From Bacilli bacterium (GTDB lineage: Bacteria > Bacillota_I > Bacilli_A > RF39 > UBA660): DNA of 64,000 nt. The position numbers and the translations under genes were made by a program. The stretch is from positions 16,334 through 80,333 of the forward strand of contig JAFUTO010000002.1 in NCBI GenBank assembly GCA_017484205.1, read 5' to 3'. Under the pieces are notes generated by a model, which was given only the letters and a program-made list of their open reading frames with translations, was not told the DNA's origin and ran no database searches. Of the stretch, positions 2,374 to 54,150 are shown in pieces. Each line of letters begins with the position of its first letter. Within the stretch, counting starts at the first letter, position 1.

Positions 2374-4740
2374 ATGAAGAAAAAATATATTATCTTTTTA
2401 TTAGTTCTTTTTATGCCTTTTATGGTACTTGCAGAGGAGCAAACTGGCACAGCTGATCATGTGACAGTAAGAAGTGCGGCGACATCAAAATCTACTTGTG
2501 TTGCGAGTACTAGAGGATGCGCCGAAATAAATGGTTCAATAACTATATTAAGTGATATTATAGAAACAACTGATTCTAATGATGGTTGTCCGTCTAAAAA
2601 GTGGTATAAAGTAAAAGGTAATGATAAAGAGGATGGTAAAGAGTACGAAGGATATGGATGTTCTTCATATATAACAATTAATACCAATGTAGAACCTAAA
2701 ACAGAAGAGGACATTAAAGTTATATCTGATACTGTAATTGCTTATGGTACTATTAATAATGGTTATGTTTATTCAGAACCTGATACTGCTTCCGCTTTGA
2801 GAAGCGATCCAACTACAGAAAAAATTGCTATATTAGGTGATGCAACTAATACTAATGCTAGTGGTTGCAAAGAGATGTATAAAATTTTATATAGTAACTT
2901 AATTTCATATGCTTGTAAGGGTAATTTTACAAATGTTACTAGTGTATCTGTCATGAACACTGCTAGCATTTCATATAATTATGAAACAGAGTTAGCAAAG
3001 TTTCCTGAAAGCTATAGAAGTTATTTAAATAATTTACATAAATTGCATCCTAATTGGAGATTTTATGCTATAGATACTAATTTAAATTTTAGCGATGTAG
3101 TAGCAAGCGAGCAAAAACAAAGTTATTTATCTGGTTCTACTGATTCTGGATATTTTGTAACATTAGAACCAAACTATTATAATTGGAAAACTAATACTTG
3201 GACATCTCAAGATTCAGGCAGTTGGTATGTTGCATCAAAAGAAGCGACGGAGTATTATGTTGACCCTAGAACTTATTTAGATGAAAAACAGGTATTTGTA
3301 TTTGAAGATTCTAGAGCTTATTCTTATCAAGTGGACGCTGCTTTACAAAAAATGATTAATTATGCAGGTGCTAGTAACTTGTCTATTTCATACGATGGTA
3401 AAACATATAGCTATTACGATGCATTTAAAGCATCAGCAGCTTTTTCTAAAGTAAGTGCGATGAGTATATTAGCTAGATCTAGAGTTGAAACAGGCAAGTT
3501 TACTTCTAATAGTGTTAGTGGAACTCGTGCATTTTCATATAATGGTAATACATATTCAGGATATTACAATTATTATAATATAGGTGCATGGGCACACAGT
3601 GGAAGAGATGCTATTACTAATGGATTAATATATGCATACAATGCAGGATGGAATAATAGATATAAGGCTATTATTGAAGGTGCTACATTTATAGCTACTA
3701 AATATGTTTATTCAGGACAAGAAACACAATATTTTCAAAAATTTAATGTAAATCCATCAACTATATATAGTATTTATGGACATCAATATCAAACTAACAT
3801 ACAAGCTCCTACTATAGAAGGAACTTATGTATACTGGGGATTCCAAGATTCAGGTAATATTAATCAACCCGTAGTGTTCCATATACCAGTATATAAAAAT
3901 ATGCCAAGTAAAGCTGCAATTCAACCTACTAGTGGAAATCCAAATAACTGGCTTACATCTATTTCTGTTGATGGCAAGTCATTAACTAATTATACTGATG
4001 CTTCTGGTAAAGAAATCTTTGATGGAGATGTTTATTATAGCTATGATAATAACTGGGATGGTGTTGCTGATGCTGTTTATTCTAATAGTGTAATTAAGTA
4101 TACTGTTTCATATGATACGACTAAAATTAATATAAAAACATCACAAGCTGTATCAACTTCTACTGTAAGTAACACAGGTGATATTGCAATAAAAGATAAA
4201 ACTACTACTATTGATATAGTTGTAACAGCAGCAAACAAAACTACTAAAACATATAGATTAATTGTAACTAGGGATGATAAACCAACAACTGATGAAAATG
4301 GAAATGTTATTTATGCAGATATTGCAAAGGTATTGAGTAGTGTTAGTGTTAAATATAATTCAACATACATGTATGGTCTTGCTTTGGGTACAAGTTATGA
4401 TACAATTAAAAATGCTATTAAAAAAGTAGATAATAGTGTTACTGTTACGATAACTAAAAATAGTAATAACAATACTGGTAATTTAGCTACAGGTGATAAA
4501 ATTAGTATAAATAATGGTAAGGAAACTAAAACATACACTTATGTATTGTATGGAGATTTAAATGGCGATGGTAAAATAAGTGTCCTTGATTTAATACATA
4601 TTAGAAATATTATTTTGGATTCATCTAATCTTACAGGTGCGTATAGAGAAGCAGGAGATATTAACCATGATGGGAAGTCTAATGTTCTTGATTTGATTTT
4701 AGTAAGAAATGATATATTAGGAGATTCTATATCTCAATAG
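2374..4740 (+). CDS. Secreted dockerin-containing putative peptidoglycan hydrolase (SH3b-like + GH73/glucosaminidase-like + cadherin-like beta-sandwich + type-I dockerin)
   Basis: 788 aa; signal peptide MKKKYIIFLLVLFMPFMVLA; SH3b-like segment; ILARSRVETGKF...YNYYNIGAW...YSGQETQYFQKFNV resembles a GH73 active-site region; C-terminal duplicated dockerin repeats GDLNGDGKISVLDL.../GDINHDGKSNVLDL... Confidence 0.6.
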   Translation: MKKKYIIFLLVLFMPFMVLAEEQTGTADHVTVRSAATSKSTCVASTRGCAEINGSITILSDIIETTDSNDGCPSKKWYKVKGNDKEDGKEYEGYGCSSYITINTNVEPKTEEDIKVISDTVIAYGTINNGYVYSEPDTASALRSDPTTEKIAILGDATNTNASGCKEMYKILYSNLISYACKGNFTNVTSVSVMNTASISYNYETELAKFPESYRSYLNNLHKLHPNWRFYAIDTNLNFSDVVASEQKQSYLSGSTDSGYFVTLEPNYYNWKTNTWTSQDSGSWYVASKEATEYYVDPRTYLDEKQVFVFEDSRAYSYQVDAALQKMINYAGASNLSISYDGKTYSYYDAFKASAAFSKVSAMSILARSRVETGKFTSNSVSGTRAFSYNGNTYSGYYNYYNIGAWAHSGRDAITNGLIYAYNAGWNNRYKAIIEGATFIATKYVYSGQETQYFQKFNVNPSTIYSIYGHQYQTNIQAPTIEGTYVYWGFQDSGNINQPVVFHIPVYKNMPSKAAIQPTSGNPNNWLTSISVDGKSLTNYTDASGKEIFDGDVYYSYDNNWDGVADAVYSNSVIKYTVSYDTTKINIKTSQAVSTSTVSNTGDIAIKDKTTTIDIVVTAANKTTKTYRLIVTRDDKPTTDENGNVIYADIAKVLSSVSVKYNSTYMYGLALGTSYDTIKNAIKKVDNSVTVTITKNSNNNTGNLATGDKISINNGKETKTYTYVLYGDLNGDGKISVLDLIHIRNIILDSSNLTGAYREAGDINHDGKSNVLDLILVRNDILGDSISQ

Positions 4741-6267: not shown

Positions 6268-8157
6268 ATGAGGAAGTTTTTATTTTTAATACTTACATTA
6301 TTATTTATTCCTTTGTGCGCGAGTGCTGCAGAATATGATATATACGAAGATACTATAAGATACTATGGTACTATTAATTATAGCTTTGTATATTCAGAAG
6401 CTAATACTAAGTCTGTACTTGCATCCAAAGGAAATATATATGAAAGGGTAGCTATATTAGGTAATGCAACAAATGCTGATGATTTAAATGATGACTGCAT
6501 TAATATGTATAGCATTATATATCAAGAAAAAGTAGCTTATGTTTGTGCTAATAATGTTATTAATATTGTTTCTGCTGAAATATTAGAAACAAGTAATATA
6601 ACTTATAATTATGATAGGGAATTATCTAAATTTCCAGAAAGTTATAGGAGTTATATTGATACGCTACATCAACAACATCCTAATTGGAGATTTTATGCTA
6701 TAAATACTTATTTGGAATATTCAGATGTAGTAAATTATGAAAAAAATGCTAACTATATAGATAGTACAACTAATAATGTGTCATATTTTGATACATTAGA
6801 AGCTATAAATTATAACTATCAAAATGAAACTTATGTGTACCACAAAGATGGTAAATGGGTTACACCAAGTACAGAAGCAACGGCATATTTTATAGATCCA
6901 AGAAACTATTTAACTGAGGAAAAAGTGTTTGTATTTGAAGATTCAAGAACATATTCATATCAAACTCCGGAACCAGTAAAACAAATATTAAAATATGTTG
7001 ATAATAATGAAATTGATTATGCTGATGTATATAAACATGCCTCAAACTTTTCGAAACTTAGTCCATTAACTTTAATTGCAAGAGCTAGATTGGAAAATAC
7101 AACATATACAGGAAATGTAAATGAACAAATAGTAGAAAAAGCTACATATTTAGCAACTAAATATACTTATAATGGACAAGAAACACAATACTTCCAAAAA
7201 TTCAACGTAAATCCAAATACGTTAAGTAATACATATGCTCATCAATATGAAACAAATATTGAAAATCCAATTGTTGAAGCTTCCTATATATATGAAGCAT
7301 ATAAAGAAGCAGATGCGTTAGAAAATTCAATAGTTTTCCATATACCTGTATATAATAATATGCCAGGTGAAAGTTCTATAAAACCTCTTGATGGAAATCC
7401 AAATAACTGGTTATCAACTATAACTATTAATGATGAGCCAATAGATAATTTTGATGGAGATAATTATTATAGTTATGATAATAACTGGGATGGCGAGGAA
7501 GACGCAGTTTATCCTGACCATGTTATTACATATAATGCAGAATGGGATGCTGAAAGTATTACTATAGATGCGTCTGCAATATCAGAAGAAGCTGGTATAT
7601 TAGGAACTGGTGAAATATCACTTCCTGATAAAGAAACAATCGTTGATTTAGTTGTTATGGCAGAAAATAATACAACTAAAACATATCGTGTAGTTATTGT
7701 AAAAAATGATCCTCCATATCCAGATATTGATTGGGTATTGAGTCAAATTGCTATTAAATACGATGACAAATATTTAAGTGGGTTATCAATTGGTAGTGAT
7801 TATAATGTACTAAAAGATGCTATTACAAATATAAGCGACTTAGTTACAACTGAAATAACTCCAAGAGAAGGTAATACAACAGGAACTTTTGCTACAGGGG
7901 ATATGATAACAGTAACTAGTGGTCCACAAGTTCGTAATTTTACATATGTATTATATGGTGACTTGAATGGTTCTGCAACAATTAGTATAATAGACTTAGT
8001 AGCAATTAGAAACATAATATTAGATGAATCTAATTTAGAGGGAGCATATAGAGAAGCAGGGGATGTAAATCGTGACGGAAAAGTTAGTATACTTGATCTA
8101 GTAGCTGTTAGGAACGATTTATTAGGTACTCATATTGTTCAATTGCCACAAGAATAG
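6268..8157 (+). CDS. Secreted dockerin-containing paralog of 2374..4740 (SH3b-like + truncated GH73-like region + cadherin-like + dockerin); possibly catalytically inactive
   Basis: 629 aa; signal peptide; shares the KFPESYRSY..LH..HPNWRFYAI and YxGQETQYFQKFNVNP blocks with 2374..4740 but lacks ~45 aa including the YNYYNIGAW block; C-terminal dockerin whose first repeat is degenerate (GDLNGSATISIIDL). Confidence 0.6.
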   Translation: MRKFLFLILTLLFIPLCASAAEYDIYEDTIRYYGTINYSFVYSEANTKSVLASKGNIYERVAILGNATNADDLNDDCINMYSIIYQEKVAYVCANNVINIVSAEILETSNITYNYDRELSKFPESYRSYIDTLHQQHPNWRFYAINTYLEYSDVVNYEKNANYIDSTTNNVSYFDTLEAINYNYQNETYVYHKDGKWVTPSTEATAYFIDPRNYLTEEKVFVFEDSRTYSYQTPEPVKQILKYVDNNEIDYADVYKHASNFSKLSPLTLIARARLENTTYTGNVNEQIVEKATYLATKYTYNGQETQYFQKFNVNPNTLSNTYAHQYETNIENPIVEASYIYEAYKEADALENSIVFHIPVYNNMPGESSIKPLDGNPNNWLSTITINDEPIDNFDGDNYYSYDNNWDGEEDAVYPDHVITYNAEWDAESITIDASAISEEAGILGTGEISLPDKETIVDLVVMAENNTTKTYRVVIVKNDPPYPDIDWVLSQIAIKYDDKYLSGLSIGSDYNVLKDAITNISDLVTTEITPREGNTTGTFATGDMITVTSGPQVRNFTYVLYGDLNGSATISIIDLVAIRNIILDESNLEGAYREAGDVNRDGKVSILDLVAVRNDLLGTHIVQLPQE

Positions 8158-20729: not shown

Positions 20730-20800
20730 CTTCTTTTATTTTTTCATATAATTTTCACAAAAATAGTTTAAAATAATGTATAATTGAATTAGGTGATAGT

Positions 20801-21463
20801 ATGAATATATTAGTTGTAGATGATGAAGAATTAATTAGAAGTGTTATAAAAGAATACCTTATTAATGAAAAATATAATGTAATAGAAGCATGTGATGGTG
20901 AAGATGCAATTACTAAAGCTTTAAATAATAATATAGATTTAATAATAATGGATATAATGATGCCTAAAATGGATGGATATAGTAGTATAAAAGAAATATT
21001 TAAAACTAAAAAGATACCAGTTATTATGTTATCTGCCAGAGGCGAAGAATATGACAAATTATTAGGTTTTGATTTAGGTATTGAAGATTATGTAACTAAA
21101 CCTTTTAGTCCAAAGGAATTGGTCGCGAGAGTTAAAGTTATCTTAAAAAGAAATAAGAAAGAAATGGATTTGTTTAAGTATAAGACATTAACAATTGACT
21201 TTAAAGCGCATCAAGTATTTATTAATGATAAAGAAGTTGGTTTAACTCCAAAAGAATATGAATTATTATTATATTTTATTGATAATAAAAATATTGCTTT
21301 ATCAAGAGAACAATTATTAAATAAAGTATGGGGATATGATTTCTTTGGTGATGATAGAACTATAGACACACATATTAAAATGCTTAGAAATAATTTAGGT
21401 GAATATCGCGATATGATAGTAACTGTAAGAGGGGTGGGATATAGATTTGAAATTGATGAATAA
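20801..21463 (+). CDS. OmpR-family response regulator
   Basis: Receiver domain (VVDDEE...D at phospho-acceptor position...IMDIMMP...K) and winged-helix trans_reg_C domain. Confidence 0.85.
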   Translation: MNILVVDDEELIRSVIKEYLINEKYNVIEACDGEDAITKALNNNIDLIIMDIMMPKMDGYSSIKEIFKTKKIPVIMLSARGEEYDKLLGFDLGIEDYVTKPFSPKELVARVKVILKRNKKEMDLFKYKTLTIDFKAHQVFINDKEVGLTPKEYELLLYFIDNKNIALSREQLLNKVWGYDFFGDDRTIDTHIKMLRNNLGEYRDMIVTVRGVGYRFEIDE

Positions 21464-22829
21464 AAATAGAAGTCTAACAGCTAATGTTTGGTCATATTTA
21501 ACTTTATTTTCAATAGCTATTTTAGGCTTTTTATGGCTGTTTCAAATAGTATTTTTGGATAAATATTATGAATATTATAAAACTAAGGATTTAATAAAAG
21601 CTGCTGAATATGTAAATAGTAATTATCAAAATAATGGAATTACTAATATGGATATAATATCTCATGATTATGGTGTATGTGTTGAAATATTTGATACAAA
21701 TAATATTATCTATTCATCTAATATGTTTAGTCGTGGATGCATGTTAGAGAATAGAAACTATATGGATGAATTTATAAATAGTGATTTATCAAGTAAAACA
21801 TATAAATTGGATAATTCTAGATTAGGTAATAAAACCCTTATATATGCGACTAATATAGATGGAGTATATACTTTTGTATCTGCATCACTTCAACCATTAG
21901 ATGCGACTACTAGTATTTTAAAAAGTCAATTTATCACAGTAACTATAATAGTTTTAATTTTATCATTTGTTATTGCGTATTTTATATCAAAAAGAATCGC
22001 GAATCCCATAGTTAAAATAAATGAAGAAGCAAGTAAAATGAGTAAAGGTGAATATGATATTAAATTTGATGAAAATAGTAGTATTGAAGAGATTAATGAA
22101 CTTGCTAGAACACTAAATCATACAAGTGAAGAACTAAATAAAATAGAAGAACTTAGAAGTGATTTGCTTGCTAATGTAAGTCATGATTTAAAGACCCCTT
22201 TAACAATGATAAAGGCTTATGCTGAGATGGTAAGAGATTTAACGTATAAAGATGATTTAAAAAGAACAGATAATTTAAATGTTATTATTGAAGAAAGTGA
22301 TAGATTAAATGTTTTAGTAAATGATATTTTAACTTTAACTAAATTAGAAAATACTGAAACTAAATTAGAAGTAGAAGAATTTGATCTAAATGAACTTATA
22401 AATAGTATTTTAAGAAGATATGATATTTTAGTAAATGAAGGTTATAATTTTGTATATAAGAATAAAAAATCAGTTATAATTAAAGCTGATAAGAAAAGAT
22501 TAGAACAAGTTATATATAATTTAATAAATAATGCGGTTAACTATACCGGAGAAGACAAAACTGTAACTATAAATATTAAGGATAATAAAAATAATTATAG
22601 GGTAGAGGTTATTGATACTGGTAATGGTATTGAAGAAAAAGACTTACCATATATTTGGGATAAATATTATCATTCTAAAAAGAAACATAAAAGAAATGTT
22701 ATAGGAACAGGTGTTGGTTTATCAATTGTTAAAAATATATTAAATAATCATAACTATAAATACGGAGTAGAAAGCAAACTAAATAAAGGATCAAATTTCT
22801 ATTTTGAAATACCAAAAGAGTTGAAATAA
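21447..22829 (+). CDS. Sensor histidine kinase
   Basis: Two TM helices, HisKA H-box SHDLKTPLT, HATPase_c N/G boxes (NLINNAVNYT, GTGVGLSIVK); overlaps the response-regulator gene; TTG versus ATG start is uncertain. Confidence 0.8.
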   Translation: MKLMNKNRSLTANVWSYLTLFSIAILGFLWLFQIVFLDKYYEYYKTKDLIKAAEYVNSNYQNNGITNMDIISHDYGVCVEIFDTNNIIYSSNMFSRGCMLENRNYMDEFINSDLSSKTYKLDNSRLGNKTLIYATNIDGVYTFVSASLQPLDATTSILKSQFITVTIIVLILSFVIAYFISKRIANPIVKINEEASKMSKGEYDIKFDENSSIEEINELARTLNHTSEELNKIEELRSDLLANVSHDLKTPLTMIKAYAEMVRDLTYKDDLKRTDNLNVIIEESDRLNVLVNDILTLTKLENTETKLEVEEFDLNELINSILRRYDILVNEGYNFVYKNKKSVIIKADKKRLEQVIYNLINNAVNYTGEDKTVTINIKDNKNNYRVEVIDTGNGIEEKDLPYIWDKYYHSKKKHKRNVIGTGVGLSIVKNILNNHNYKYGVESKLNKGSNFYFEIPKELK

Positions 22830-22840
22830 TACCTCTTTTT

Positions 22841-22912
22841 TTTGTCGAACTTTGTCGAACAATGTCTAGTTTTGTCGAAGTTATTGAAAAGATGTTGAAA
22901 TAGGTATATATT
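22841..22912 (+). promoter_or_regulatory. Triple direct repeat TTTGTCGAA(c/g) (22841, 22851, 22871) followed by promoter TTGAAA, 17-nt spacer, TATATT (22884-22912)
   Basis: Three 9-10 nt repeats 10 and 20 nt apart immediately upstream of the -35; candidate operator/activator sites for the dinD-like gene. Confidence 0.4.
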
Positions 22913-22938
22913 TGTGACGATAAAAAGGAGAAAAAAGA

Positions 22939-23778
22939 ATGCAAAATAATAAATTGGAAACAATAACAAATTTGTTTCAAGGAAGTGAAATTAGAAGTGT
23001 TTGGGATAGCGATAAAGAAGATTACTATTTTAGTGTAGTAGATGTTATAGGAGTTTTGACGAACGCTAATATACCAAGAAACTATTGGAGTGATTTAAAA
23101 CGAAAATTAAAGGAAGAAGGAAGCGAACTGCACGAAAATATCGTGCAGTTGAAAATGACATCTAGAGATGGCAAAATGAGAAATACAGATGTCTTAGATA
23201 CAGAAGGCATATTTAGGCTTATAGAATCAGTACCATCACCAAAAGCAGAACCATTCAAAGCATGGTTAGCTAAATTAGGTAAAGAAAAAGTAGATGAGGT
23301 GTTTGACCCATCAAAAGGAATAGACCAAATGATTGATTTTTACCTAATGAAAGGTTATGACTTAGATTGGATTAAAGAAAGAGTTAATGCAATTATAGAT
23401 AGGAAGATATTAACTGGTACTTGGAAAGAGTTAGGAATAAATGGAAACAAAGAATATGCTATATTAACAAATGAGATATATAAAGAATGGTCTGGTATGA
23501 CCGCGAAGGAATATAAAAAACATAAAGGGATAAGAAAAGAAAATTTGAGAGATAATATGTCTGACATAGAAATAGCTTTAACTACTTTAGGAGAGATAGC
23601 AACTAAAGAAATAGCTAAGGAACAAAAACCACAAGGATTAAAAGAAAATATGAATGTTGCTAGAAGAGGAGGTCATGCGGCTAAGGTAGCTAGAGAAGAT
23701 ATAGAAAAGAATTTAGGTAAATCTGTCATAACTAAAGATAATAATTTAAATTATCGATATGATGATTTAAAAAAATAA
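22939..23778 (+). CDS. DinD-family (DNA-damage-inducible protein D-like) protein with Bro-N-like N-terminal domain
   Basis: 279 aa; C-terminal KGIRKENLRDNMSDIEIALTTLGEIATKE...ARRGGHAAKVAREDIEKNLG aligns by eye with the E. coli DinD C-terminal region; N-terminus is Bro-N/antirepressor-like. Confidence 0.55.
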   Translation: MQNNKLETITNLFQGSEIRSVWDSDKEDYYFSVVDVIGVLTNANIPRNYWSDLKRKLKEEGSELHENIVQLKMTSRDGKMRNTDVLDTEGIFRLIESVPSPKAEPFKAWLAKLGKEKVDEVFDPSKGIDQMIDFYLMKGYDLDWIKERVNAIIDRKILTGTWKELGINGNKEYAILTNEIYKEWSGMTAKEYKKHKGIRKENLRDNMSDIEIALTTLGEIATKEIAKEQKPQGLKENMNVARRGGHAAKVAREDIEKNLGKSVITKDNNLNYRYDDLKK

Positions 23779-23862
23779 CTTTTAGTGATCAGTTAAAACA
23801 AACAACCTAAAGCAGATGAAAATCTATGCTTAATATGGTATAATTAGATAGGAGATGGTATT

Positions 23863-24789
23863 ATGTTATATTTACTTTATGGTGAGGCATATCAAATAAA
23901 AAAAGAAGTAGATAAAATAATAAAAGATAATAATATTTTAGATATCAACATAAGTAAATATGACTTAGATGCATATAATTATAAGGATGTTTTAGAAGAT
24001 TGCACATCTATTTCTTTGTTTGATGATAAAAAAGCAATTATAGTAAGTAACGCATCTATATTTACATCAGCTAAAACGGGAATAGATATAGAAAAATTTG
24101 AAGAATATATACCTAATTATAATCCTAATGCCATAGTTATCTTTACTTTAGAAGATAAATTGGATGAAAGAAAGAAAACAGTAAAATTAATAAGAAAACA
24201 TGGTGTAGTTAAAGAGTTTAATACTAGTGATAATCCAAATGATATAGTTAAAAGTATGCTAGATGATTATCAAATGGATTTAAAAACAATTAATAGATTT
24301 ATAGAATTGGTTGGAAATGATACTTATAATATCAGTAATGAGTTAGATAAGCTTAAATTATATAAAGGTGAAGATAAGAATATTACAATTGAAGATGTTA
24401 ATAATGTTACTACTAATAATATTGATATAGATTTATTTAAACTTATGGATGCGATTATGGAAAATAAAAAAGAAGATGCGATTGAAAGATACCATAATAT
24501 GCTTTTATATAACACAGAACCAATACAAATTATAATAGCTTTAGCTAACAAATATAGATTGATGTATCAAGTTAAGACTTTATTTAAATTAGGTTATACA
24601 GAAGGGGATATGGCTAAAGAATTAAAACAAAGCCCTAAATATATTTTTGTTTTAAATAAACTATCCAAATCTTATAGCGCATCTTATTTATTAAATGAAA
24701 TAAAAGAATTAGCAAAATTAGATTATGATATTAAAAGTGGAAATATGGAAGATGAATTAGCGTTAGAATTGTATATTTTAAAAAAATGA
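23863..24789 (+). CDS. holA: DNA polymerase III delta subunit
   Basis: 308 aa; typical N-terminus (LYLLYGEAY.I) and delta-subunit length; the call is by overall pattern only. Confidence 0.5.
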   Translation: MLYLLYGEAYQIKKEVDKIIKDNNILDINISKYDLDAYNYKDVLEDCTSISLFDDKKAIIVSNASIFTSAKTGIDIEKFEEYIPNYNPNAIVIFTLEDKLDERKKTVKLIRKHGVVKEFNTSDNPNDIVKSMLDDYQMDLKTINRFIELVGNDTYNISNELDKLKLYKGEDKNITIEDVNNVTTNNIDIDLFKLMDAIMENKKEDAIERYHNMLLYNTEPIQIIIALANKYRLMYQVKTLFKLGYTEGDMAKELKQSPKYIFVLNKLSKSYSASYLLNEIKELAKLDYDIKSGNMEDELALELYILKK

Positions 24790-47073: not shown

Positions 47074-50000
47074 ATGAAGATGCAAAGTAGTAAGTTTAAA
47101 GGAATTTTGTTATTTTTAGTAAGTTTTATGGTATTTACAATTGTACCAACGGTTGCTAAAGCTGCAACATACAATTTTAGTTTTAGCGCATACAATTGTG
47201 GTAATAGTACATATACAGAGGATGATATAATTGATAATTGTATTCTAGAATATTATGATGGCAATTTAGCAAAGCTAAATGATGGAGTCGTTGTAGATAC
47301 AGATAAATACATCATGCTAGTTTTGGAATACGAGTATACTAGCGGTACGGGTGCAGCAGTTTTATCAGTTGATACTTCATATGATAATACTTTTGTTGAA
47401 AATTTATCATTCACTCAAACAGCTATTGATGCGGATAACCCAATTTTTACAAGATCAATTGCTAGAAAATGGAATTCTTCAACAAGTGATACTGGTAGTT
47501 TAGTTGTATTAGCTTATGATTCAGACGATGAAACTTTGACTTATGATCCAGGTGCGATTGGATTTATGTTCTTCAAAGTAAAGGACACCGCACCAGCTGG
47601 TCAAACTTTTACGTTTGCTATATCTGATGATCCTGATGATACTCGTGTCAGTGATTCCACAGGTAATATACATATCGATTGGGCAGCTTCTCCAATATCT
47701 TTCAAGGTTGCTGGATCTGCAACTTCGACTGATACTTCTTTAAAAACTTTAAATGCTAAAGGAAGTAATGCAACTGATTATTCAATTTATATGGATAATG
47801 GTTATACAACTGAATTTAGTGCAGGAACATCAAATAGAACGTTCTATGCAGTAGTTCCATATGATGTTACTTCAATTACTTTAAATGGTGAAGTAACAGA
47901 TTCTGCTGCTCAATTTATTCCAGGAAATGGTACTACTTATAGTAGAAATCATAATTTAGATGTAGGAAATAATGAAATAACATTTAGAGTTACCGCACAA
48001 AGTGGTACTACTGAGGATTATTATATTAATGTCTATAGATTAAGTAATGATGCATCATTACAGACATTAACTACTTCAGGTAATGTTACATTGAATGGTT
48101 TTGCTTCAAATGTATATAGTTATGATATTTCAACTACTTATGCAACTGTTACAACAAATGTAACATCAAAACCTACTCATGAAAATGCTTTTGTTACAAA
48201 TAGTGAAGATGTATTATGGGATAAAAATACAAGTTCAGGTAGTTATACTCAAACTTTTGCTTTACCAGGTTTTGGTACTGATGTTAATACCAAAGTTGTC
48301 AAGGTACAAGCAGAAGATTGTTTAAGTGAATATGCAAGTGTTCCAGGTAATACTTGTCATACACAAGATTATACAATTAATGTTAGTAGATTAAATCCAT
48401 CTACAGATGCAACTTTAAAAGCATTAGCTGTTGATGGAACTTCAATATTTGTAGAAGGTACTACAGATTATGATCAAGGTTCACAACCATATTCTAAATC
48501 ATCAGCTGATATAACTGCTACAGCTAACGATTCAAAAGCTACAGTAGTTGCTTCAACTGTTGGAAATAAAACATTAAATGTTGGCGATAATACTATTACA
48601 GTTACGGTAGAAGCAGAGGATTGTAAGGTAATTACTGGTTCTAATCCAAGTGGTAGTTGTCATACACAAGATTATACAATTAAATTCTATAGAAGAAGTA
48701 ACAATGCTAATTTAAATACATTAGTTGTTACTGGAACAGGTGTATCTATGAATCCTGCATTTACGGATCATAGTTATGTTGGACCATATACTGTAAGTTA
48801 TCCATCAGGAGCAACATCTGTTAATGTCAAAGCAAGTGTTGAAGAAGAACATGCCACAATTAATATTACAGGTATCGAAGATGGTATTGACTATTCCAAT
48901 TTAAGTAATCAATTAAGCATAATTGTTACTGCAGAAGATGGTAATACTAAAACTTATGTATTAAGATTTAGTAAAGTATTATCTAGAGAGTCTAGACTTG
49001 ATAGTTTAACTGTTAGCGGTGTATCATTATCTCCATCACCATTTGATCCAGATACATATACATATTCTGGTAGTGTAGATGGTAATGTTGAAAAAGTAAC
49101 TATTGGTGCAACATTAAAAGATGCTGATAAATCAACATTTATGGAAGGCTATGGACCTAGAGAAGTTGAATTAAATTATGGTGATAATACATTCTATGTT
49201 AGAGTACAAGGTGAAGCAGATGATGCCACTAGTTCATATAATGTCACAATAACAAGAAATGAAAAAACAATTAAAACATTAAAAGAAATTTCAATTGATA
49301 GTGTACCTATTGATCCATTTGATCCAGACACAATTACTTATACTGTAGATCCAGTCGATTATTCAACAACTTCAGTTACAGTTAAAGCAGTTGTTACAGA
49401 AGGCAGTGATGCTACATATACAGTATTAAATCAATCAGGTGGTGTAGCCGTAGGTGGTGTTATTAACTTAAATACAGGTGATAATACTGTTACAATAAGA
49501 GTTAGAGCTCAAGATGGTTCTACTGGTGATTATACAGTAACTATACCAAGAGAAAAGAATAATGTTGCTACTGTAGATAGTGTAACCGTATTTGGTAATG
49601 CTGCTACATGTGATAACGATACAAGAAAATGTACTATTACAGTAACAAATGATCATTCATCAATCGCACCTACAGATGTGGTTGTAATTCCAACTGATTC
49701 TAGTGCTACAGTAACTAAACCTACAGATACAAGAAATTTAGTAGTATCTACTCCAAGTAATCCAAGAACTAATACTTATATCTTCAGTGTTAAAGCAGAA
49801 GATGGTGTTACTACAAAGGAATATGAATTAATTATTACAAGAGAAGCATCAGATGATGTATCTTTGAAAGAAGTATCAGTATTTACAAATGAAGGTCAAA
49901 CTTATAGATGTACAACATTTACTGGATTTGCATGTACAATTTCAGTACCAAGTACAACTACAGGTTATACACTTTCAGCTACACCTAATTCAGGCGCAGC

Positions 50001-53000
50001 AACTGTAGATGGTACAGGTTCATTTACTATGGATGGTGCATCTGATAGTAGTCAAATTAAGGTATTAACAGTAACAGCAGAAGATGAACATAGTCAAGTA
50101 TATCAAATTAAAATTGAAAGAAGTAAATCTACCAACGCTAATTTAAAGACTATTACTATTGATGGTGTAGAAATAGATGGCTTTGATGGAGTTAATAAAC
50201 AAAATTATACTGTTACTGTTCCTGGTACTACTGAAGCAATTACATTAGGCGCTGAAGTAGATGATACAGGAAAAGCAACTATCGAAAATAGTGATACTAT
50301 TTTAGGTAGAAAAGATCTTGTTTATGGATCAGAAGGAAATGTTTATACATTAAAAGTTATTGCTGAAGCTGGCGAAGGTTCTGTTAAAACATATACAGTT
50401 ACAGTAATAAGAAGTAATAATATAGATTCTACATTATCTATGATTCAAATAGGTGGTAGTAATTTAAATGGTTTTGCATCTAACACATATGCATATAACT
50501 ATAATGATACATATTATCAAGATTTAGGTAACGAAAACCAATTAGTAGTACCTTATAATAAAACTAGCATTACTTTGTTAGGTGTTCCTACAGATACCAC
50601 TTATGGAACAGTTAAATATAATGGTACTGCATCAACTGAAGCAACAACTATAAACTTAACAACAGGTGTTAATACTATTACTGTAACGGGTGTTGCGCAT
50701 GATACAAGTAAAACAACAGATTATGTATTAAAAGTATTTAGAACATTGAATTCAAATAATTCAATTACTAAATTAGAGGTTGCTGGTGTAGAAGCTACAT
50801 GGGATGATGAAAACAACAAATATACAGTTACTGTTCCAAATAGTGTTGATAGTGTTGGAACATTAAATGTTAATGTCACATTACCTGCAAAACAAGTAGC
50901 TACAGACCCTGATGCAACTGTAACGATACCAACTATGTCATTAACAACAGATAACGTTAATAATTATCAAATTATTGTTACATCAGAAGCTGGTGAAGCA
51001 AAAACATATCCAGTTGAAATAACAAGAGCAAAATCAACTGTAAAAACATTAACTGCATTAGCTGTAACAAATGGTGCGTTCAGTCCGTCATTTACTCCAA
51101 ACACTAATGAATATACAGTTATTGTACCTGCTTCAACTACTGAATTTACAGTAAGTTATACTAAAGCAGATCCTAAAGAAACTGTAACTGGTGCTAGAAG
51201 ATATGACATGACTTCAAGCAATATGGATGTTATAGTTGAAGTTCAAGCTGAAGATCCAGAAGAACCAGTTAATAGATATACATTACATATTGAAAGAACT
51301 GAGTCAGCAGTTAATACTTTAAGTAGTATTGTTGTTAATTCAGGAGAGACTATTTATGCTTTAAATCCATTATTTAGTCCAGATAAAACTTCATATGTAG
51401 TAGAAGTACCTGGTACTGTATCACAAGTTAATATTACAGCTACACCTACAGACAGTAGATCTACTGTAACAGGTGATGGTGTTAAAACAGTAAGTAGGGG
51501 TGATAATACATTTACTATTACATCTACTTCTGAAACAAATACATTTATTAATTATACTGTTAATGTTAAAGTATTAGATAAAACAATAAATACATTAAAT
51601 AATATAACAGTAACTTTGGATGATGGAACAGTTTTACCATTAAGTCCTAATTTTGCATCTGATATTCAAAATTATACAATTGCTGATCAACCATATAGTG
51701 TTACTACAGTAAATATCGGTGTAGAAAGAACTGATAGTGATTCAACAGTTAAAATTGGTAATGTTGATTATACAATGACTGATGAAACTAATGGTATTAC
51801 AGTACCACAAAGTCTAAACGCTGGTGCGAACACAATAAAAGTTGTTGTTACAGCACAGGATGGAACTTCTAGTACATATAATATCCGTATTAGAAGAGAA
51901 GAAAACGATGATGCTACTTTAAGGACATTAAATGTTTCAGGTGGATCTTTATCACCTACATTTGCTCCTGAAATTACATCATATTCAGTAGAATTAGATA
52001 GTGATGTAACTACATTATCTCCATCAGAAGTAACTGCAATAGCTACTGATTCAAATGCAACAGTAACAAAAGATCCAACAGTTACAATAAGTGATGATGG
52101 AACTACTATATATGATATCTTAGTAACAGCTCAAAATGGTACAACAAAAACATATTCAATAACTGTATCTAGAAAGAAAAGTGCTGATGCTAAGTTGAAG
52201 AGAGTAGATTTGACTGGCGCTTCTATTAGTCCATCATTTACTCCAAACAATGATCAATATACATTAAATATTTCTTCAACATCAACAGAGTTTACAATTC
52301 AAGGTATTCCTAATCATGATAATGCTACTGTGTCATATAATGGTGTAGGATCAACAGAAGGTATTACATATCCTGCTTCAACTGATACTGTTTCTATTAC
52401 AGTAACAGCAGAAGATGGAAGTACAACAAAGACGTATACATTTAATGTTGTAACTGCTACTGCAAGAGACGCTACATTAGCTGACTTGGAAGTATTAGGA
52501 TATACTTTAGATCCTGAATTTGATACAACTACTGTTGTATATGATATTGGTGAAGTTGAGTTTGGAACAGATAGTTTAACTATTATTGCGACTCCTACAA
52601 ATACTAATGCTACAGTTAATTATTATGTAGATGGTGTTAAGCAAGATGATAATGTCGTTGATTTACCACAAGCATTAGGTAGTAAGAGTATTACAATTGA
52701 AGTTGTACCTGCTACAGGTTCAAAAGCGCAAGCTAAGTATTATTCTGTTAATTATGACATGGTTACATCTAGAAATAATTATTTAGCTACATTAATACCA
52801 AGTAGTGGTACATTAAGCCCATCATTCTCAAAAGGTAGAACTGCTTATTCAATGACAGTACCTTATGATACTGAAAGCATATCATTCCAAGTAACTACTG
52901 ATAATAACCAATCATCAGTAAGTAATGATGGTACAACATTTATGTTTACAGATGCTGAACCAGCTACTTATGTATATAATGATTTGCGTGTAGGCACAAA

Positions 53001-54150
53001 TACAATGACATTTACGGTAAGAGCTGCTAATGGTGCATTAAGAGATTATGTTGTAACTGTTACAAAGACAGGTAGAACACCATCTTCAGATGTTTATTTA
53101 TCTAGTTTAAAAGTAGATAATTATGAGTTGACACCTAGTTTTGATAAAACCGAAGAGGTTTATTCAATAGGAAGTATCCCTTATAGTTTACAAACATTAA
53201 CAGTAAGGGCTACAGGTAATTATGCAGGTCAAACAATTACGTATAGTTTAAATGGAACTGATGTTACAGCAAATGATGATGGAAGTGCAACAATTAATGT
53301 TGCTGGAACTACAGGATCTAATTTGATAAATGTTCATGTTGTAGCTGAAAACGGAACATCTACAAAAAATTATCAAATATCTTATACTAAGACGCCATCA
53401 TCTAATGCTTACTTAGCTAGTATGATAGATGGATTACATAAGATTACAAATTTCAATAAAGAAACAAAAGATTATGAAATTAGTGTTGATAGTACAGTTG
53501 GTACATTAACATTAACATTAACTACTGAAGAAGAACATGCTACTATGACTATTAATGGTACTAAACGTACTCATCAATGGGCATATGAAGCTACGAACCT
53601 AAAAGGTGGAACTAATGTTGTTGTAATATTAGTAACAGCAGAAAATGGTGATACAGCAACTTATAAATTGACTATCAATAAAGAAGGTTCAAGTGAACTT
53701 ATAACTTCTGAAGAATTTGGACATATAATAGAAGATGGTTTCATAAAAACAGCAATATTAAATGAAACTATTGGTGATTTAATGTCTAATGAATTGGATA
53801 ATGATGTTGACATGTTACAAGTTTGGGATGCAGAAGAAACTGCTGAAATAAATGATACATCTACTAAAGTTGCTACTGGTCAAATAGTTAGACTAGTTGA
53901 TAGAACAACAGGTGCAGAATTGGATAGAAAAGTAGTAGTTGTTAGGGGAGATACTGATGGCAATGGTTCAATCAATGTATTAGACTCAATTCCAATTGTT
54001 AACCAATCATTAAGAAGATTAACATTAGTTGGTGCCTATGCTCAAGCAGCAGATGTTGATAAGAATGGTTCAATCAATGTATTAGACTCAATTCCAATTG
54101 TTAATCATTCATTAAGAAGAACATTTATAGATTATACTATAGGAAGTTAA
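47074..54150 (+). CDS. Putative adaptor scaffoldin (2358 aa): N-terminal cohesin-like module + ~24 cadherin-like beta-sandwich domains + C-terminal dockerin
   Basis: Signal peptide; N-terminal ~180 aa ending ...DPGAIGFMFFKVKDTAPAGQTFTFAIS, which resembles the cohesin C-terminal strands; repeated cadherin-like units; C-terminus GDTDGNGSINVLDSIPIVNQSLRR...ADVDKNGSINVLDSIPIVNHSLRR (dockerin duplicated segments). Confidence 0.7.
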   Translation: MKMQSSKFKGILLFLVSFMVFTIVPTVAKAATYNFSFSAYNCGNSTYTEDDIIDNCILEYYDGNLAKLNDGVVVDTDKYIMLVLEYEYTSGTGAAVLSVDTSYDNTFVENLSFTQTAIDADNPIFTRSIARKWNSSTSDTGSLVVLAYDSDDETLTYDPGAIGFMFFKVKDTAPAGQTFTFAISDDPDDTRVSDSTGNIHIDWAASPISFKVAGSATSTDTSLKTLNAKGSNATDYSIYMDNGYTTEFSAGTSNRTFYAVVPYDVTSITLNGEVTDSAAQFIPGNGTTYSRNHNLDVGNNEITFRVTAQSGTTEDYYINVYRLSNDASLQTLTTSGNVTLNGFASNVYSYDISTTYATVTTNVTSKPTHENAFVTNSEDVLWDKNTSSGSYTQTFALPGFGTDVNTKVVKVQAEDCLSEYASVPGNTCHTQDYTINVSRLNPSTDATLKALAVDGTSIFVEGTTDYDQGSQPYSKSSADITATANDSKATVVASTVGNKTLNVGDNTITVTVEAEDCKVITGSNPSGSCHTQDYTIKFYRRSNNANLNTLVVTGTGVSMNPAFTDHSYVGPYTVSYPSGATSVNVKASVEEEHATINITGIEDGIDYSNLSNQLSIIVTAEDGNTKTYVLRFSKVLSRESRLDSLTVSGVSLSPSPFDPDTYTYSGSVDGNVEKVTIGATLKDADKSTFMEGYGPREVELNYGDNTFYVRVQGEADDATSSYNVTITRNEKTIKTLKEISIDSVPIDPFDPDTITYTVDPVDYSTTSVTVKAVVTEGSDATYTVLNQSGGVAVGGVINLNTGDNTVTIRVRAQDGSTGDYTVTIPREKNNVATVDSVTVFGNAATCDNDTRKCTITVTNDHSSIAPTDVVVIPTDSSATVTKPTDTRNLVVSTPSNPRTNTYIFSVKAEDGVTTKEYELIITREASDDVSLKEVSVFTNEGQTYRCTTFTGFACTISVPSTTTGYTLSATPNSGAATVDGTGSFTMDGASDSSQIKVLTVTAEDEHSQVYQIKIERSKSTNANLKTITIDGVEIDGFDGVNKQNYTVTVPGTTEAITLGAEVDDTGKATIENSDTILGRKDLVYGSEGNVYTLKVIAEAGEGSVKTYTVTVIRSNNIDSTLSMIQIGGSNLNGFASNTYAYNYNDTYYQDLGNENQLVVPYNKTSITLLGVPTDTTYGTVKYNGTASTEATTINLTTGVNTITVTGVAHDTSKTTDYVLKVFRTLNSNNSITKLEVAGVEATWDDENNKYTVTVPNSVDSVGTLNVNVTLPAKQVATDPDATVTIPTMSLTTDNVNNYQIIVTSEAGEAKTYPVEITRAKSTVKTLTALAVTNGAFSPSFTPNTNEYTVIVPASTTEFTVSYTKADPKETVTGARRYDMTSSNMDVIVEVQAEDPEEPVNRYTLHIERTESAVNTLSSIVVNSGETIYALNPLFSPDKTSYVVEVPGTVSQVNITATPTDSRSTVTGDGVKTVSRGDNTFTITSTSETNTFINYTVNVKVLDKTINTLNNITVTLDDGTVLPLSPNFASDIQNYTIADQPYSVTTVNIGVERTDSDSTVKIGNVDYTMTDETNGITVPQSLNAGANTIKVVVTAQDGTSSTYNIRIRREENDDATLRTLNVSGGSLSPTFAPEITSYSVELDSDVTTLSPSEVTAIATDSNATVTKDPTVTISDDGTTIYDILVTAQNGTTKTYSITVSRKKSADAKLKRVDLTGASISPSFTPNNDQYTLNISSTSTEFTIQGIPNHDNATVSYNGVGSTEGITYPASTDTVSITVTAEDGSTTKTYTFNVVTATARDATLADLEVLGYTLDPEFDTTTVVYDIGEVEFGTDSLTIIATPTNTNATVNYYVDGVKQDDNVVDLPQALGSKSITIEVVPATGSKAQAKYYSVNYDMVTSRNNYLATLIPSSGTLSPSFSKGRTAYSMTVPYDTESISFQVTTDNNQSSVSNDGTTFMFTDAEPATYVYNDLRVGTNTMTFTVRAANGALRDYVVTVTKTGRTPSSDVYLSSLKVDNYELTPSFDKTEEVYSIGSIPYSLQTLTVRATGNYAGQTITYSLNGTDVTANDDGSATINVAGTTGSNLINVHVVAENGTSTKNYQISYTKTPSSNAYLASMIDGLHKITNFNKETKDYEISVDSTVGTLTLTLTTEEEHATMTINGTKRTHQWAYEATNLKGGTNVVVILVTAENGDTATYKLTINKEGSSELITSEEFGHIIEDGFIKTAILNETIGDLMSNELDNDVDMLQVWDAEETAEINDTSTKVATGQIVRLVDRTTGAELDRKVVVVRGDTDGNGSINVLDSIPIVNQSLRRLTLVGAYAQAADVDKNGSINVLDSIPIVNHSLRRTFIDYTIGS

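Follow-up and report, generated by a model that had tools for sequence, protein, structure and literature searches.

The region of interest lies in a 64-kb window (the whole stretch of DNA analyzed, 64,000 nucleotides) of a contig from a ruminant-gut metagenome assembly; the GC content of the window is 30%. Genes for QueH, an OmpR/PhoB-family response regulator (20801-21463), and a HAMP histidine kinase (21447-22829) lie upstream. Downstream are a gene for a Bro-N-domain protein (22939-23778) and then holA (23863-24789). Between the kinase and Bro-N genes (window 22830-22941, TACCTCTTTTTTTTGTCGAACTTTGTCGAACAATGTCTAGTTTTGTCGAAGTTATTGAAAAGATGTTGAAATAGGTATATATTTGTGACGATAAAAAGGAGAAAAAAGAATG), there are three exact matches to TTTGTCGAA on the + strand, at 22841-22849, 22851-22859, and 22871-22879. 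Tandem Repeats Finder reported positions 22841-22879 as a period-10 array of 3.9 copies with the consensus TTTGTCGAAC. A degenerate unit, AATGTCTAGT, occupies 22861-22870 and brings the array to approximately four units at 10 bp. The features of the region are given below, with the repeat units named after the 0A box, the binding site of Spo0A.

22814..22842, + strand: remnant of the kinase-operon terminator, a weak hairpin followed by T8 (from folding energy)
22843..22849, + strand: 0A box 1, TGTCGAA, perfect consensus; center at about -74 from the predicted start site
22845..23837, + strand: insertion of ~1 kb (~993 bp) relative to related genomes, comprising the array, promoter, Bro-N gene, and 3' tail; boundaries uncertain by a few bases
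22853..22859, + strand: 0A box 2, TGTCGAA, perfect, 3 bp after box 1; center at about -64
22863..22869, + strand: degenerate unit TGTCTAG, 5/7 versus the consensus, in register; center at about -54
22873..22879, + strand: 0A box 4, TGTCGAA, perfect, ending 4 bp before the -35 hexamer; center at about -44
22883..22899, + strand: weak units in the same 10-bp register, TATTGAA (22883-22889) overlapping the -35 hexamer and TGTTGAA (22893-22899) in the spacer
22884..22912, + strand: predicted sigma-A promoter, TTGAAA-17 nt-TATATT (consensus scan only)
22924..22930, + strand: ribosome-binding site AAAGGAG, 8 nt before the ATG at 22939
22939..23778, + strand: Bro-N-domain gene (Pfam), 279 amino acids, with weak DinD-like similarity at the C terminus; presumed regulated gene

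An earlier note on this DNA had reported the triple repeat at 22841, 22851, and 22871, and exact matches were found at all three positions. Its general inference, that phased direct repeats upstream of a promoter mark the site of a multimeric regulator, is upheld here. The promoter that it proposed, TTGAAA-17-TATATT, was also recovered, although our scan called 43 sites in the window compared to 44.3 in shuffled sequences. Because the scan is no richer in sites than the shuffles, the promoter is a prediction from a consensus match; its position is supported by the AAAGGAG at 22924-22930 and the ATG at 22939. Transcription would start near 22919-22920. Relative to this predicted start site, the array spans about -77 to -41 and ends 4 bp upstream of the predicted -35 hexamer.

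Across both strands of the 64-kb window, only three copies of the core heptamer TGTCGAA were found, all of them within the array, and there was no other 0A box. Dinucleotide shuffles contained a mean of 2.4 TGTCGAA per window, located anywhere. Thus, the clustering and phasing of the array are far beyond chance, and from the shuffle rate we calculated, rather than simulated, a probability of ~1e-8 to 1e-6 for three independent copies in a 10-bp register within 40 bp. The null to consider realistically is tandem duplication and not chance, given that the first two units share the same 10-mer. The intergenic region was identical in 3/3 available strain copies and therefore gives no sign of selection on the array. 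A one-mismatch variant of the heptamer, TGACGAA, is present within the Bro-N coding sequence at 23056-23062, ~135 nt past the predicted transcription start. As at box 4, the sequence before it is AGTTTTG.

To place the array in its genomic setting, we compared the window with its closest relatives by kinase sequence (69-78% identity; L091-L094). These loci have the gene order QueH-(BacA)-regulator-kinase-holA. In L092 and L094, the gap between the kinase gene and holA is only 38 bp and holds a strong terminator hairpin and the holA -10. The junction sequence in L093 is identical to that of L092 and L094 and ends in a cut open reading frame (ORF), while L091 ends before holA. Comparing window 22845-23837 with L092 5975-6040 and L094 6390-6450 defined a segment of ~993 bp in the window, with the T-tract of the kinase terminator to its left and the holA -10 to its right. 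The array is thus the leftmost part of an insertion. No target-site duplication, terminal inverted repeats, or flanking repeats were found around it. The terminator in the window (22800-22845) had a folding energy of -3.7 kcal/mol (z -0.26), no better than shuffles, compared to -11.4 kcal/mol (z -4.2) in L092. With the kinase terminator so much weaker than in the relatives, read-through into the Bro-N gene is possible.

The variable genes beyond holA encode KilA-N and ORF6N proteins in L092, and giant surface proteins in the window. ORFs 25481-46930 (7149 amino acids) and 47074-54150 (2358 amino acids) carry repeated glycine-rich (ALK_LTK_GRD) and cadherin-like modules, and the proteins of 2374-4740 and 6268-8157, near the giant ORFs, end in dockerin domains. 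This set is unusual for a Bacilli genome.

The product of 22939-23778 matched Bro-N only in Pfam and had no match in NCBIfam. Pairwise comparison with Escherichia coli DinD gave 25% identity over 71 C-terminal residues (E 1e-4). The protein has thousands of homologues at 63-77% identity. In 80 loci from different species, the neighbors of the homologue were never those of the window and none of the loci was syntenic. Its context differs in every genome, and the Bro-N gene acts as an independent unit that carries its own promoter. No TGTCGAA array was found upstream of the homologues in these 80 genome loci or in five further contigs, with the closest metagenome homologues included. Perfect boxes were enriched: there were 4 in 24.6 kb of sequence upstream of homologues versus 0.054 per kb elsewhere in the loci (~3-fold), all 4 oriented with the gene. 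The full-length protein family was almost absent from sequenced phages, with 4 weak matches in 50,697 records, all of them unannotated fecal "Bacteriophage sp." fragments, and the promoter region had no DNA match in sequenced phage genomes.

A second type of element was common upstream of the homologues. Allowing one mismatch or fewer, a LexA-like palindrome, GAAC-N4-GTTC, was present in 16/82 upstream regions (~20%) compared to 1.7% of shuffles (the loci include L008, L012, L029, L038, L043, L053, L054, L062, and L078). The distance from these palindromes to the start codon is 30-94 nt; in the examples inspected (e.g., L029 and L038), they fall between the -35 and -10 hexamers. Part of the Bro-N family thus appears to be SOS regulated. 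The copy in the window lacks such a palindrome.

The repeat in the window matches a different site. The 0A box is 5'-TGTCGAA-3', Spo0A~P works as a dimer, and sites mapped by footprinting contain two boxes 3 bp apart (PMC2731898). Clostridioides difficile Spo0A has the same specificity, which depends on G2, C4, and G5, and consensus boxes are located at -75 of spo0A and -78 of sigH in that organism (PMC3485338). The effect of a box is set by its position, and upstream boxes can activate (bioRxiv 10.1101/2025.01.21.634141). The array in the window has three exact TGTCGAA heptamers (22843, 22853, and 22873) in a tandem direct repeat with 3-bp gaps and a 10-bp period. The weak unit TGTTGAA at 22893 shares its single deviation with the TGTtGAA variant among the footprinted boxes of phage Nf (PMC2731898). 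A literature search with extended TTTGTCGAA-type strings matched primer sequences only.

We believe that the repeat is a putative array of Spo0A-binding sites, at about -77 to -41 of a sigma-A-type promoter that drives the Bro-N gene, so that this gene, within an insertion of ~1 kb, would be controlled by Spo0A~P. We put the probability of this reading slightly above even, at roughly 0.55. The match to the consensus, the spacing, the position, the insertion, and the use of such arrays at spo0A and comK genes elsewhere (see below) are direct observations. That the host has Spo0A, that it binds at the array, and in which direction it regulates are inferred. The array is best filed as a further instance of a known site type, the Spo0A-box array.

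The likeness to Spo0A-controlled promoters of Bacillus subtilis and C. difficile (abrB, spo0A, sigH, and spoIIA/E/G) is close. The heptamer is identical, the boxes are in direct repeat with a 3-bp gap, and several boxes of graded quality lie at about -75 to -40, proximal to a promoter that is a predicted one in the window. Natural targets are described as mostly degenerate (PMC3485338), and with three perfect boxes the array in the window is stronger than most of them. It differs from these promoters in its target, a Bro-N/DinD-like gene that is not known to be connected with sporulation, and in its host, an uncultured Bacilli lineage in which Spo0A is presumed.

In the model that we propose, Spo0A~P would accumulate at the transition to stationary phase or sporulation, and head-to-tail Spo0A~P dimers would fill the two box pairs cooperatively. 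Bound Spo0A~P would most likely activate the promoter from the -44 box that abuts the -35 hexamer, as at Spo0A-activated sigma-A promoters. The weaker units TATTGAA and TGTTGAA over the -35 hexamer and spacer, which may be occupied to some degree, might dampen expression when Spo0A~P is high. The inserted gene would then be expressed as cells enter stationary phase or sporulation. We propose that the ~1-kb insertion between the kinase gene and holA either brought in the array, promoter, and gene together or was assembled from them. A functional site would add the Bro-N/DinD-like gene to the Spo0A regulon of this uncultured Bacilli lineage from the gut. It would also be a clean natural example of how a small insertion that replaces the promoter puts one gene family under different global regulators (LexA in many genomes and Spo0A here). 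In other respects, the array is a routine transcription factor site.

We looked for comparable architecture elsewhere, beginning with heptad pairs in the fetched loci. Pairs of TGTCGAA-N3-TGTCGAA or TGTCAAA were present in L033 and L031 upstream of unrelated genes. In these two loci and in the viral contigs L143 and L116, box pairs had identical geometry, with the second box beginning 16 nt before TTGACA. We scanned viral contigs with TGTCGAANNNTGTCRAAC. Among the matches listed, many were in intergenic promoter regions of low-GC phages, beside diverse small accessory genes. This distribution together with the heptamer itself points to Spo0A. 0A boxes are known in phages (PMC12991052), and the frequent intergenic box pairs in low-GC phage contigs fit this known use. 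Like the 0A boxes of phages phi29, Nf, and SPO1, the array in the window follows the consensus, which in those phages is often paired 3 bp apart, and sits at a predicted promoter of putatively mobile DNA, where expression would follow the Spo0A state of the host. Unlike them, it belongs to a cassette of a single chromosomal gene and not to a phage.

In families of low-GC phage contigs (L103, L114, L145, L148, L162, L174, L187, L191, L193, and L204), a 0A-box pair was positioned 50-60 nt upstream of divergent genes for small zinc-ribbon or membrane proteins. A TATAAT-like hexamer 2 nt or less after these pairs suggests Spo0A-repressible promoters.

We then scanned metagenomes for three boxes with TGTCGAANNNTGTCGAAN{3,23}TGTCGAA. 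Many of the matches listed were plain 10-bp microsatellites or high-GC arrays, so a TGTCGAA array alone is not diagnostic of Spo0A. Three of the arrays with differing spacers stand out. In L225 and L218, the triple array again has a 10-bp period. It precedes, by 140 nt in L225, a gene whose product combines a receiver domain with a Spo0A_C domain (157 bits) and, by 52 nt in L218, a ComK gene. In L230, a triple array is found upstream of parA/soj. The first two show the architecture of the window at recognized Spo0A targets, and triple boxes at a spo0A gene are as autoregulation predicts. Another contig family (L318), with an apparent array before a Spo0A-like receiver, was dropped from consideration since the contigs break or are chimeric there.

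Several other arrays from the same scans deserve mention. In gut metagenomes, a triple 0A-type array at L296 4531-4557 is immediately upstream of an 814-amino-acid ORF that reads by eye as Cas3-like. Further triple arrays precede genes for zinc-ribbon membrane proteins of 524-540 amino acids and an ORF read by eye as glyceraldehyde-3-phosphate dehydrogenase (L288 and L261; L283 and L265). In environmental contigs of 40-50% GC (L233, L239, L248, L255, L325, L333, and others), the sequence GGTGAGCTCT is followed by a microsatellite, (TGTCGAACCA)n, and then by GGGCTGAC. This GGTGAGCTCT-(TGTCGAACCA)n-GGGCTGAC element recurs in many unrelated contigs and is unrelated to the Firmicute arrays.

A working Spo0A site depends on the regulator being present in the host. 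We found no spo0A or recognizable sporulation gene in ~74 kb (the 64-kb window plus ~10 kb of downstream flank; ~45 genes). Judged by their Pfam labels, the genes called in L091-L094 likewise included neither spo0A nor sporulation genes, and L225 was the only fetched locus with spo0A. By our own estimate, the chance of seeing none among ~45 genes is 5-15% if a few percent of genes were sporulation genes. This lack is mild evidence against a spore former. If Spo0A is absent, the array would be a transfer relic from a spore former or phage, or it would be read by another protein. The array could also serve as a cheap marker, its presence predicting Spo0A in the organism or in the donor of the cassette.

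A relic is a possible, though on balance unlikely, explanation. Here the array would be inactive in its present host, either because a Bro-N cassette moved horizontally from a spore former or phage into a host lacking Spo0A or because the repeat is a by-product of slippage at the junction. The whole segment is inserted and absent from relatives, no sporulation genes were found in the ~74 kb, and Bro-N homologues are in a different context in each genome, as a mobile single-gene cassette would be. The first box also spans the apparent junction with the host T-tract, and the identity of units 1 and 2 could reflect a recent slippage duplication. However, three perfect heptamers, each with a CpG, have been kept at a genomic GC content of 30%. 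A diverged unit sets the fourth unit apart from the first two, which rules out a fresh simple duplication. An arbitrary slippage product is also unlikely to match a known 7-bp consensus exactly, at the right spacing and close to the promoter; by our own estimate, a random 10-bp unit would do so with a probability of ~1e-3.

Two further outcomes, even counted together, strike us as distinctly improbable. In one, the host belongs to a reduced Bacilli lineage without Spo0A, and the array would indicate a hitherto unrecognized regulator with Spo0A-like specificity in nonsporulating Firmicutes. In the other, the 279-amino-acid Bro-N/DinD-like gene would be a mobile single-gene cassette rewired between stress regulons, LexA type in many genomes and with a Spo0A-box array here. 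Were the cassette rewired in this manner, its product, possibly a modulator of RecA or of prophage repressors, would be switched on by the master regulator of sporulation and stationary phase and not by DNA damage.

Proteins other than Spo0A were considered as binders of the array. OmpR-family regulators bind direct repeats with a 10- to 11-bp period upstream of or overlapping the -35 hexamer. The genes for an OmpR/PhoB-family regulator (20801-21463) and its kinase are immediately upstream, and the Bro-N gene could be a target of this two-component system. The array does have 10-bp direct repeats near the -35 hexamer, and, like the Pho box (CTGTCAT-N4-CTGTCAT), it consists of direct repeats about one helical turn apart with a TGTC core, upstream of or abutting the -35. 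However, the orthologous loci (L091-L094) have neither the array nor the Bro-N gene, and no TGTCGAA is present upstream of the regulator operon. A different direct repeat is conserved there. The sequence TTCATA-N5-TTCACA, with an 11-bp period, is common to the window (20743-20759) and L091-L094 (about 4297-4315 in L091 and at equivalent positions in L092-L094), ~20 nt upstream of the -10 of the regulator operon. Conserved in five loci, it is the likelier recognition site of the OmpR-family regulator and a candidate autoregulatory box. We therefore rejected the two-component operator and hold it to be quite improbable.

We give equally little credence to the idea that the array is the site of another heptad-repeat regulator, such as a CtsR-like repressor, or that the Bro-N protein autoregulates its own gene. 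The CtsR operator is RGTCAAA-N3-RGTCAAA, a direct repeat of heptads separated by 3 bp. The layout is that of the array and 5/7 positions match; however, the other 2/7 differ in every unit, compared to 7/7 for Spo0A in three units. The gene context differs as well, with no ctsR or clp genes nearby. Judged by eye against what we take to be their consensus sites, CtsR, PurBox, TnrA, Rex, cre, the DnaA box, and MraZ all fit more poorly than the 7/7 of Spo0A. In favor of autoregulation, Bro-N domains are predicted to bind DNA, and the gene that directly follows the array encodes one. Against autoregulation across the family, none of the Bro-N homologues inspected has such an array.

The earlier note had also called the gene dinD-like and had suggested an atypical LexA-like or damage-responsive operator. 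The name draws weak support from the short DinD match and from the LexA-like palindromes at some homologues, while Pfam reports Bro-N only. The operator did not survive tests of palindrome, consensus, and position. Every unit holds CGAAC or CGAAG, and the array shares the pentamer CGAAC with the Firmicute LexA (Cheo) box, CGAAC-N4-GTTCG. However, the half-sites are direct in the array and inverted in the Cheo box. Over the 130 nt that precede the gene, the best CGAAC-N4-GTTCG match had 3/10 specified positions wrong, and the best GAAC-N4-GTTC core had 2 mismatches, which ~23% of shuffles equaled or bettered. The array is also upstream of the -35 hexamer, not between -35 and -10 as are the homologue palindromes that were read. 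Despite the ~20% of homologues with LexA-like promoter palindromes and the weak DinD similarity, an atypical LexA operator built from three CGAAC half-sites is highly improbable, and this candidate was rejected.

Among the Bro-N homologues, one from L216 (532-1677, P0002) is 381 amino acids long and has an internal duplication of ~100 residues, in which EGSEL...RLIESVPSPKAEPFKLWLA...DEVFDP occurs twice.
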